This document shows positions 19,775 through 62,214 of a stretch of 64,000 nt of DNA, one piece after another (positions within the stretch are counted from its first letter, which is position 1; the number at the start of each line of letters is the position of its first letter). The notes beneath the pieces were generated by a model. The model ran no database searches. It was not told where the DNA came from and was given only the letters and a program-made list of their open reading frames with translations. The stretch is from a virus, in the IMG/VR virus record IMGVR_UViG_3300022752_000038, positions 31,042 to 95,041 of that record, one strand, 5' to 3'. The position numbers were made by a program, and so were the translations under genes.

Positions 19775-19775
19775 T

Positions 19776-60822: not shown

Positions 60823-61344
60823 ATGCCATTCGGTAAAGGAAACGGACGTAAATCATTTAATTTATCAGAGTCTGAAATTAGATATGCTATGATGAATACC
60901 AAATCTAATCAGGCTGCTGCTCGATTCATGAATGTTTCATACGAAACTTATCGTAAATATGCAAAACAATACCGAGATTCGGCTACTGGGAGAACGTTAT
61001 TTGAACTCCATAAGAATGTTTCCGGTAAAGGTATTATCAAAACACCTAAGGTCAATACACGTGTTATATCAACATTAAACGATATATTTGACGGCCTTAA
61101 ACCAAATTATTCTATATACAGACTCAAACATAGATTAATTCATCATGGCTTTATGGAAGAGAAATGTAATCTATGCGGATTCCAAGAACGACGTGTATAT
61201 GATTATAGCGTACCTTTATTATTAGATTTTATTGATGGAAATAAATCTAATTTTAATTTAAGTAATTTACAATTATTATGTTATAATTGTACTTATTTAA
61301 CATCGCATAATATTAAAGGGCGCCCTAAAAAGTTAACATGTTGA
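60823..61344 (+). CDS. HTH plus HNH-like zinc-finger protein
   Basis: SNQAAARFMNVSYETYRKYA helix-turn-helix; CNLC...LDFIDGN..N..LSNL.LLCYNC. Confidence 0.7.
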   Translation: MPFGKGNGRKSFNLSESEIRYAMMNTKSNQAAARFMNVSYETYRKYAKQYRDSATGRTLFELHKNVSGKGIIKTPKVNTRVISTLNDIFDGLKPNYSIYRLKHRLIHHGFMEEKCNLCGFQERRVYDYSVPLLLDFIDGNKSNFNLSNLQLLCYNCTYLTSHNIKGRPKKLTC

Positions 61345-61378
61345 AAATCAATGAGTTACAACTTTTTTAACTTTTTTC

Positions 61379-61411
61379 TAGGATTTATGCAAAAACGTAC
61401 TTATACTTAAG
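61379..61411 (+). promoter_or_regulatory. Class A bipartite promoter of the ncRNA-tRNA operon
   Basis: TAGGATT at 61379, TTATACTTAAG at 61401. Confidence 0.75.
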
Positions 61412-61553
61412 TATATAGTAAGTATAAACCAAAGGTTTGGAACGTATGCCGAATCTAGGAACGGTTGGGGCTCGAATACCGTTTTGGACCGAGAGCTGAC
61501 TAATTAGGAGTCGCGACCTATTAACGACAAAATAATGGTTACTTACTGTATAT
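61411..61553 (+). ncRNA. Candidate structured ncRNA (multi-branch, ~143 nt)
   Basis: 13-bp + 5-bp closing stem (61411-61431 with 61536-61553) enclosing three hairpins; begins at the promoter and ends one base before tRNA-Leu. Confidence 0.65.
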
Positions 61554-61639
61554 GCCCAGGTGGCGAAATAGGTAGACGCAAGGGACTTAAAATCCCTCGG
61601 ACAGAAATGGCTGTGCCGGTTCGAGTCCGGCCCTGGGTA
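61554..61639 (+). tRNA. tRNA-Leu(TAA)
   Basis: GCCCAGG/CCTGGGT acceptor, AGGGA-CTTAAAA-TCCCT anticodon arm, long variable arm, GGTTCGAGTCC T arm; no encoded CCA. Confidence 0.95.
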
Positions 61640-61651
61640 CTTTTTTTATAT

Positions 61652-61726
61652 GGCGGGGTGGACTGGAGGTGGTTCCAGCTTGGTCTCATAAGCCAAATGA
61701 CGTAGGTTCGACTCCTACCCCCGCAA
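61652..61726 (+). tRNA. tRNA-Met(CAT), initiator-like but atypical
   Basis: G.GCGGGG/CCCCGC.A acceptor with 1:72 mismatch, TTGGT-CTCATAA-GCCAA, GTAGG-TTCGACT-CCTAC. Confidence 0.85.
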
Positions 61727-61733
61727 CTAATAT

Positions 61734-62214
61734 GTAGGCGTTCTTTGACATTTCAAAAAGGATAAAATTATGGAAACAATGTATTTTGTTTTAGGTATGC
61801 TCTCGATCATCGCTGCAGCGATTGTAAGCGTATTGGTTTGGGGTATAGTTAAGATTAACAAACAACAACAAAGTCTTAATGACATAAATCGTCAATTGGA
61901 AACACAATCTCGTGAACTTAACGAAAGATTCATTGAAATGCATCGTGATATGGATCAACGAAGTAGCTGGATTCATCAACGAATAGATGAATACCATGCT
62001 AAACTACACGATCGCATAGACCGAGAAAGTGCAGAGGTTAATAGACGAATAGAGGAAGATGATGCTAACGCATCTCGTGAGTATGAACGAATTTATAATG
62101 AGATAGCCGAGGCTCGTTCGTATACGGATTCACGTATAGATAAAGTATTAAGCACAACCGGTGCTAAACAAGTAATTAAAGGATAATAAACATTAACCGT
62201 CAAAGAATGCCTAC
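61734..62214 (+). repeat. 16-bp inverted repeat flanking ORF 61770-62186
   Basis: GTAGGCGTTCTTTGAC (61734-61749) and GTCAAAGAATGCCTAC (62199-62214); 15 Watson-Crick pairs plus one G.U. Confidence 0.85.
61770..62186 (+). CDS. Membrane-anchored coiled-coil protein
   Basis: N-terminal TM segment followed by a heptad-rich helix; AAAGGA upstream. Confidence 0.7.
   Translation: METMYFVLGMLSIIAAAIVSVLVWGIVKINKQQQSLNDINRQLETQSRELNERFIEMHRDMDQRSSWIHQRIDEYHAKLHDRIDRESAEVNRRIEEDDANASREYERIYNEIAEARSYTDSRIDKVLSTTGAKQVIKG

Follow-up and report, generated by a model that had tools for sequence, protein, structure and literature searches.

A covarying four-way-junction RNA element carried in the tRNA clusters of freshwater phages

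We describe an element of ~130-143 nt that is probably a conserved, independently folding, gene-like non-coding RNA, one that would be co-transcribed with tRNAs, receive its 3' end from RNase P and have its termini locked in a terminal helix. It was observed in a 64,000-nt stretch of viral DNA (the window), the final 64 kb of an IMG/VR record that is 95 kb long and has an estimated completeness of 54%. As judged from comparative sequence analysis, the element is a four-way junction in which the terminal helix P1 (9-14 bp) joins both ends and encloses the hairpins P2, P3 and P4. Besides its own lineage (A), represented by the window, alignments and covariance-model matches indicate further copies in two related lineages (B and C), again within tRNA clusters; the carriers belong to a clade of large freshwater phages.

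Genomic setting and parts of the element

A blastn search against 50,697 phage records found no close cultured relative of the window at the DNA level; matches to the locus were confined to tRNA-Leu, with none within the element. All the features around the element are on the + strand: an HNH gene, a 209-nt non-coding gap, tRNA-Leu, tRNA-Met, a membrane-type ORF of 138 aa and an SLT-domain transglycosylase gene. No ORF of at least 30 aa was present in the element region. The HNH gene is context, lying directly upstream and outside the RNA element; homologous HNH genes occupy the same place in the related contigs L016/L024 and L033. The features are as follows.

60823-61344, + strand: HNH homing-endonuclease gene (PHROG HNH endonuclease families, E 2e-14 and 2e-11; weak Pfam HNH_3)
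61347-61368, + strand: conserved 22-mer ATCAATGAGTTACAACTTTTTT, with exact copies in kin contigs and in unrelated viral contigs
61381-61407, + strand: putative 'class A' promoter, with -35-like TAGGAT (61381-61386), 17-nt spacer and -10 TATACT (61402-61407)
61411-61424, + strand: P1 5' arm; inner 10 nt (61415-61424) conserved, with compensatory changes in lineages B and C
61428-61431, + strand: P1b 5' strand ACCA, pairing with TGGT at 61536-61539 (base-pair probability 0.77-0.96, ViennaRNA)
61433-61456, + strand: hairpin P2, stem 61433-61440/61449-61456, loop L2 AACGUAUG at 61441-61448 (base-pair probability >0.9)
61458-61485, + strand: hairpin P3, stem 61458-61465/61478-61485, 12-nt loop L3 UGGGGCUCGAAU with self-complementary GRGCUC
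61486-61503, + strand: junction J3/4, with CCGAGAGC at 61489-61496, invariant in 7/7 distinct sequences
61504-61521, + strand: hairpin P4, stem 61504-61508/61517-61521, loop L4 AGUCGCGA, palindrome GUCGCGAC at 61510-61517
61522-61539, + strand: A-rich junction J4/1 (UAACGACAAAAUAAUGGU), including the P1b 3' strand (61536-61539)
61540-61553, + strand: P1 3' arm, its last base being position -1 of tRNA-Leu (G1 at 61554)
61554-61640, + strand: tRNA-Leu(UAA) (ARAGORN; Rfam tRNA, 57.9 bits)
61652-61727, + strand: tRNA-Met(CAU), second tRNA of the unit (ARAGORN and Rfam tRNA)

Helix P1 (61411-61424/61540-61553) comprises 14 bp, one more than the initial annotation had counted, with the two G.U pairs that it had named. 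P1b, which it had drawn as a continuation of this stem, is present here but is private to this phage, as lineages B and C have no counterpart.

Across the lineages, P1 was longest in A (14 bp) and shorter in B (10 bp) and C (9 bp), with 9-10 bp in the part conserved in B and C. J1/2 had 6-8 nt; P2 had a stem of 5-8 bp with an 8-nt loop A-N-CGUAUG; P3 had a stem of 7-8 bp with a loop of 12-14 nt holding GRGCUC; J3/4 had 17-22 nt; and P4 had a stem of 4-5 bp with a loop of 8-9 nt that varied between lineages. A purine-rich stretch resembling J4/1 and ending in GG was present in all lineages. Three single-stranded motifs were fixed across lineages: the P2 loop holds CGUAUG, the P3 loop GRGCUC and J3/4 CCGAGAGC. 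Within the window, an antisense target for the invariant J3/4 motif was matched only at chance level.

The palindrome GRGCUC of the P3 loop was kept in all lineages and was lengthened to UGAGCUCA in lineage C. The palindrome GTCGCGAC that the initial annotation had pointed out in the P4 loop is real: it reads GUCGCGAC in lineage A and GUCAUGAC, still palindromic, in L026 and L218, while it is wobble-only in L163 and lost in lineage C. With such loops a kissing-loop dimer, mainly through the P3 loop, is possible.

By visual inspection, UGACU (J3/4) could pair with AGUC (P4 loop) as an H-type pseudoknot in lineages A and B; L218 disrupts this pairing, and lineage C lacks it.

Downstream of the tRNAs, positions 61734-61749 pair with 62199-62214 in a 16-bp long-range helix with one G.U, which brackets the entire 138-aa ORF. 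L025 and L026 keep its 5' arm (GTAGGCGTTCTTTGAC) behind their last tRNA, and L033 keeps part of it.

Folding of the single sequence

The 143-nt element had a predicted minimum free energy (MFE) of -41.3 kcal/mol (z -3.3 against shuffles, with 0/200 shuffles folding as well), and its folding energy ranked about 50th among 4258 overlapping 143-nt windows of the same DNA (top ~1%). Helices of 14 bp with at most two G.U pairs within 700 nt numbered 7 in the window, compared to ~11 expected by chance in a rough hand calculation. Given this energy rank and this chance frequency of helices, the single sequence is suggestive, not decisive; the homologues are decisive.

In the ViennaRNA ensemble, P1, P1b and P2 had base-pair probabilities above ~0.8-0.9 (P1b minimum 0.77), in agreement with P2 as first proposed. 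For a transcript of positions 61413-61730 (the element, tRNA-Leu and tRNA-Met), the element was predicted to fold as an autonomous domain beside two cloverleaves. The MFE structure contained a long-range helix, 61463-61473/61508-61518, in place of P3 and P4. This central helix was rejected as the true fold: only 71.6% of its cells were paired across the homologues, and it was broken throughout lineage C. Since it is broken there and P3 and P4 covary, P3 and P4 constitute the conserved fold. Both hairpins, absent from the MFE structure, are thus present as the initial annotation had written them.

Homologues and covariation

The initial annotation had proposed collecting homologues upstream of the tRNA clusters of related phages, and the search yielded two further lineages. 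Kin loci were fetched via the SLT protein and via alignment of homologues of the 138-aa protein. Among them, L026, a 146-kb freshwater metagenome contig, matched at E 9e-12 (nhmmer; the non-coding gap was also run by blastn against all fetched loci). A motif scan of IMG/VR led to L163 and L164, and a later scan to L218. A covariance model built from the lineage A and B sequences, and used to search further loci, scored 156-159 bits on L026, L163, L164 and L218. The same model detected L029, L031, L033 and L035 over the full length at only ~21 bits; in these four, the four helices and the motifs CGUAUG, GAGCUC, CCGAGAGC and AAAGG-ACUUGCU all occur in order. Lineage B therefore comprises L026, L163/L164 and L218, and lineage C comprises L029, L031, L033 and L035.

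Among the closest homologues of the 138-aa protein was P0002 (ENA or Logan), with 72% identity.

Covariation was counted over 7 distinct sequences from 3 independent lineages, in an alignment that is model-fitted and hence biased towards pairing. For the four-way junction together with a candidate GCUC/GAGC pseudoknot, 90.5% of the pair cells formed standard pairs. Changes on both sides were observed in 14 pairs (31 cells), compared to 0-3 pairs when the 3' partners were slid by 1-3 columns, and 0/500 shuffles reached as high a count. The pairs of the candidate pseudoknot never vary among the homologues, hence they give no covariation signal either way. By helix, the pairs changed on both sides were distributed as follows.

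P1: 3/7 pairs
P2: 5/8 pairs; the inner 5-6 bp covary
P3: 4/8 pairs; 94.6% of cells paired
P4: 2/5 pairs; 88.6% of cells paired

A hand-anchored table agreed with these counts; for example, the innermost pair of P3 reads U-A, U-G, C-G, G-C and G-U across the sequences. The multi-branch layout of four helices drawn in the initial annotation was therefore borne out by comparative covariation. It had also read G.U pairs as a signal of selection on RNA. Two such pairs occur in P1 and they are frequent among the homologues, which identifies the + strand as the one that carries the RNA.

The covariance model detected no copy in 48 whole kin virus records other than the three of lineage B, so that the element is absent from most kin, including L025 (the closest by the 138-aa protein) and 45 other whole kin records. 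No second copy was found in the 95-kb source record by BLAST or covariance model, and a search of IMG/VR with one exact 26-mer had no match. Gapped-motif scans, of which two covered IMG/VR and one GTDB genomes, were filtered with the covariance model and returned only the lineage B copies L163, L164 and L218, with no bacterial copy among the GTDB matches listed. The family is therefore rare and patchy, and its absence from most kin indicates that the element is dispensable.

Promoter and 5' end

The box GTACTTATA at 61397-61405 is a recurrent part of the 'class A' promoter. The full promoter-like motif, YTWGGWTT-N11-GTACTTATA (TWGGWT, 17 nt, TATAMT), has four copies in the window (at 19775, ~26017, 33626 and 61381) with fixed spacing, and its -35-like half is unlike TTGACA. 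The same box lies 5' of tRNA-Leu in L016/L021, L024 and L033.

Given the -10 element at 61402-61407, transcription is expected to start at ~61412-61416, which is more likely than the start at 61411 assumed in the initial annotation. That annotation had equated the 5' end of the RNA with the transcription start and its 3' end with the base before G1 of tRNA-Leu; the second of these boundaries stands. The outer 2-4 bp of P1a (here called P1) probably lie upstream of the start. With a start at ~61412-61416, the transcribed P1 would have ~10-12 bp, matching its length in the homologues.

The 22-mer ATCAATGAGTTACAACTTTTTT is located upstream of the promoter here and 5' of the tRNA-Leu promoter box in the kin contigs L016/L021, L024 and L033. 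A short TTGAn-n-ATCAA palindrome precedes it, and exact copies are also present in viral contigs that are not related in other respects (L017/L019, which are high-GC, and L020/L023). In L018/L022 it stands at the head of three iteron-like repeats, ATCAATnnGTTA. The 22-mer may be a protein-binding site or a sequence associated with the homing endonuclease.

Genomic context of the copies

All copies are on the tRNA strand, inside tRNA clusters and upstream of a homologous 138-aa gene. In lineages A and B, the 3' arm of P1 runs up to the base (position -1) just before the next tRNA or tRNA-like gene. In lineage B, the ~150 nt upstream of the element hold a 12-bp long-range pairing (found by eye) and a chimeric tRNA-Leu-like sequence. 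In lineage C, the element follows tRNA-Leu and a 42-aa ORF, and is itself followed by a 119-nt piece and then a tRNA-like gene. The description of the element as fused to the 5' end of a tRNA operon is thus accurate for this phage; in lineages B and C it sits inside the cluster, in C at 119 nt from the next tRNA-like gene. From these differing positions we conclude that the element behaves like a movable gene of the cluster and not like a fixed leader.

Kin that have no element at this locus show other arrangements. In L016 and L024, the slot between the promoter and tRNA-Leu is filled by an ORF for a 38-aa hydrophobic peptide, and in L025 the locus has only tRNA-Asn. The peptide (MKKDPVDVF...WLFS) is conserved between these kin (L016:1476-1592; L024, minus strand). 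In L033, a 70-nt unrelated leader precedes tRNA-Leu.

These observations bear on the main rival explanation, namely that the element is a cis-acting leader whose fold stabilises the 5' end of the transcript, insulates the folding of the tRNAs or guides their processing, and which is degraded after cleavage. Such a role would suit an element that is promoter-proximal in this window and that, in lineages A and B, directly abuts the tRNA or tRNA-like gene that follows, and a 5'-terminal helix is a known stabiliser of bacterial RNAs. On the other hand, lineage C places 119 nt with a predicted structure of their own before the next tRNA-like gene, and a 42-aa ORF upstream; a simple clamp has no need of invariant loop and junction motifs; and most kin have the same tRNA-Leu with no element, its place being taken by the 38-aa ORF or the 70-nt leader. 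We therefore regard a cis-acting leader as unlikely, though it deserves serious consideration.

Other RNA-like sequences lie close to the element. The non-coding pieces that flank it in lineage B (L163:1955-2075, with the 12-bp long-range pairing CAGAAGAATGGGT/ACCCATCTTCTG) and in lineage C (L033:1952-2070, with modest predicted structure, z -2.0) had no Rfam match; they may be additional RNA modules of the clusters. A family of tRNA-like genes was also found near the element (L026:1820-1938 and 2215-2288; L163:2213-2320; L033:2071-2172; L031:928-1024). Its members share a constant acceptor stem AGTCAGG/CCTGACT, a class-II-type D arm and a T arm (CAGGTTCGAATCCTG), and have a hypervariable middle of 30-80 nt, with a canonical anticodon loop in 0/5. 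Four of the five scored above the Rfam tRNA gathering score (31-43 bits), while L163:2213-2320, scanned through its L164 twin, had no match at E<=0.1. In its tRNA-like character with a long insert this family resembles T4 rnaC. A group I intron (RF00028, 53.2 bits, above the gathering score) is located at L164:3483-3698, ~2.4 kb upstream of the element.

The tRNA-Leu locus also carries traces of rearrangement. On the minus strand of L024 (~2270-2900), a 5' fragment of tRNA-Leu (GCCCGGATGGTGGAATCGGTAGACACGC...) is followed by a second endonuclease-like ORF and then by an intact tRNA-Leu; this insertion with partial target duplication marks the tRNA-Leu site as a hot spot of homing endonucleases. 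The chimeric tRNA-Leu(UAA)-like sequence L163:1852-1937 (= L164:5823-5907) has a 5' acceptor strand GCCCAGA that cannot pair with the 3' strand CCGACTA, and is rejected by ARAGORN. This 3' strand matches the AGTC-type tRNA-like genes, and the chimera looks like a recombination product.

Could the element itself be non-functional, a chance inverted repeat or debris of endonuclease-driven rearrangement at tRNA-Leu? The insertion hot spot, the tRNA fragments in L024 and the chimeric tRNA in L163 are what such a history would leave behind. Moreover, the P1 3' arm is similar to the spacer between tRNA-Leu and tRNA-Met, helices of 14 bp are no rarity in this AT-rich genome, and the folding energy is only in the top ~1%. 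Still, three lineages keep the element at differing cluster positions, with 14 covarying pairs and invariant loop motifs. By this comparative evidence the reading appears largely refuted, and we give it hardly any credence.

Proposed maturation and action

We return to the reading that we prefer, a gene-like RNA of the tRNA transcript. The order of the unit would be class A promoter, element, tRNA-Leu and tRNA-Met, with the RNA as the first unit of a transcript starting at about 61412-61416. An RNase P cut at tRNA-Leu +1 (61553/61554) would make the 3' end of the element. The released RNA would have both termini in P1, where they would be shielded from end-dependent RNases, so that it could be stable and accumulate. 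Stable RNAs that act in trans, among them 6S, Y RNAs and tRNAs, likewise have their ends paired in a terminal stem. The invariant nucleotides of the loops and the junction could provide a tertiary core or a binding surface for action in trans, the partner being, as our best guess, a protein or another copy of the RNA.

Two points count against parts of this scheme. By textbook rules, RNase P acts poorly on a leader whose pairing extends to position -1, and in lineage C RNase P cannot set the 3' end because the element is not flush with a tRNA there.

Searches against known RNA families

The initial annotation had recognised no known family, and the check with Rfam covariance models agreed: with Rfam 15 (4227 models), there was no match on 61345-61553 at E<=10. 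On the homologue loci L026, L164, L033 and L031, there was no match to the element at E<=0.1. When the whole window was scanned at the gathering score, and 61200-61800 at E<=10, only the two tRNAs were significant; the remaining E<=10 matches fall outside 61411-61553 and far short of their gathering scores. As far as these models tell, the element is a member of no known RNA family.

The same searches bear on the idea of a small self-cleaving ribozyme or ligand-binding aptamer within the tRNA precursor. A four-way junction whose single-stranded junction and loop positions do not vary is what one typically sees in catalytic or ligand-binding cores, and a location at a processing site would fit. 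However, no Rfam ribozyme or riboswitch was matched (at E<=10 for the window and at E<=0.1 for the homologue loci), an expression platform is missing, as a tRNA comes next, and RNase P would already account for the junction with the tRNA. We judge this proposal to be very unlikely.

Several other known types were considered and rejected. A tRNA or tRNA-like RNA has a cloverleaf with a 7-bp acceptor stem, a 5-bp T-stem and a 7-nt UUCRANY loop; ARAGORN and Rfam tRNA found only the flanking tRNAs, and the loops of the element have 12-14 nt (P3) and 8-9 nt, variable (P4). A processing stem for RNase III requires a near-continuous duplex of ~>=20 bp and no conserved loops, whereas the conserved P1 has only 9-10 bp (14+4 bp here) and the distal loop and junction motifs are conserved. 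MITE-like mobile elements with terminal inverted repeats have multiple copies per genome and target-site duplications; here the 95-kb record has a single copy, and the arms covary as RNA pairs, including G.U.

Comparison with known systems

Y RNAs and YrlA combine a Ro-binding terminal helix with a tRNA-like module, and co-occur with a Ro60/Rsr (TROVE) protein. The element is like YrlA in its long terminal stem formed from the 5' and 3' ends and in its multi-branch module; it differs in having neither a T arm nor a D arm of the tRNA kind, and neither a model match nor a Ro/TROVE gene was detected. The initial annotation had suggested a Y-RNA-like or tRNA-like decoy, which would bind Ro60/Rsr or tRNA-directed enzymes, and the long terminal stem, the cloverleaf-like topology and the location in a tRNA cluster do recall such RNAs. 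Yet there was no match on the element to Rfam Y RNA, YrlA or tRNA-clan models, and no TROVE (PF05731) or RtcB gene was detected in the source record (54% complete), with positive controls. The sequence CTCGAAT, described as T-loop-like, found support in no test. The 12-14-nt P3 loop and the variable P4 loop leave no T-arm. Tests favoured neither the likeness to Y RNA nor the decoy role, and we consider this explanation highly improbable.

In MALAT1 and MEN-beta, among other RNAs, RNase P generates the 3' end by cleaving at a tRNA-like structure that lies downstream (mascRNA). Here, similarly, the 5' maturation site of the adjacent tRNA would set the exact 3' end of an upstream non-coding RNA. 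MALAT1 and MEN-beta are long nuclear RNAs of eukaryotes to which a triple helix gives stability, whereas the element would be a small RNA of a bacterial virus with a terminal helix and a presumed RNase P cut.

GOLLD and ROOL often adjoin tRNAs and are possibly co-transcribed with them (PMC5737381). Several RNAs of the GOLLD/ROOL/manA type assemble into RNA-only multimers, and recent reports of RNA-only assemblies include short RNAs (bioRxiv 10.1101/2024.12.08.627333; 10.64898/2026.07.01.735769). The element is similar to GOLLD, ROOL and manA as a structured phage- or prophage-associated RNA of unknown function. GOLLD and ROOL, on the other hand, are 4-6x larger, the element has no Rfam match to GOLLD, ROOL or manA, and its self-association is suggested only by palindromic loops. 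We also considered that the RNase P-released RNA might self-associate via GRGCUC of P3 (UGAGCUCA in lineage C) and GUCGCGAC/GUCAUGAC of P4 (in A and in L026/L218) into a defined RNA-only dimer or multimer, a miniature counterpart of GOLLD, ROOL and manA borne by a tRNA operon. This more specific proposal is rather doubtful.

Since T4, additional small stable RNAs have been known from the tRNA clusters of phages, and we know of no function established for them after fifty years. The element would be a second, unrelated example. With its compact covarying fold, a putative promoter at one end and RNase P at the other, and motifs that can be mutated, it offers a tractable model for such RNAs, which might act as a protein sponge, as a processing factor, as a self-assembling particle or in counter-defence. 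RNA databases and the annotation of freshwater jumbo-phage genomes also gain a new family.

The closest known kind is represented by T4 rnaC (species 1, 139 nt) and rnaD (species 2, 119 nt), which are not homologous to the element: the covariance model, run with filters off over the T4 tRNA region, gave only fragments of <=10 bits. The predicted fold of rnaC is tRNA-like, with a GGUUCGAAUCC T-arm, while the element is modelled as a four-way junction that has no T-arm and carries other conserved motifs. The resemblance is one of kind. In both systems, a phage tRNA cluster with a homing endonuclease (segB in T4, HNH here) encodes RNAs of ~120-140 nt on the same strand as the tRNAs. The element keeps this character: its copy in the window has no ORF, and it lies on the tRNA strand and in a cluster in 3/3 lineages, with its boundary at a tRNA site in lineages A and B.
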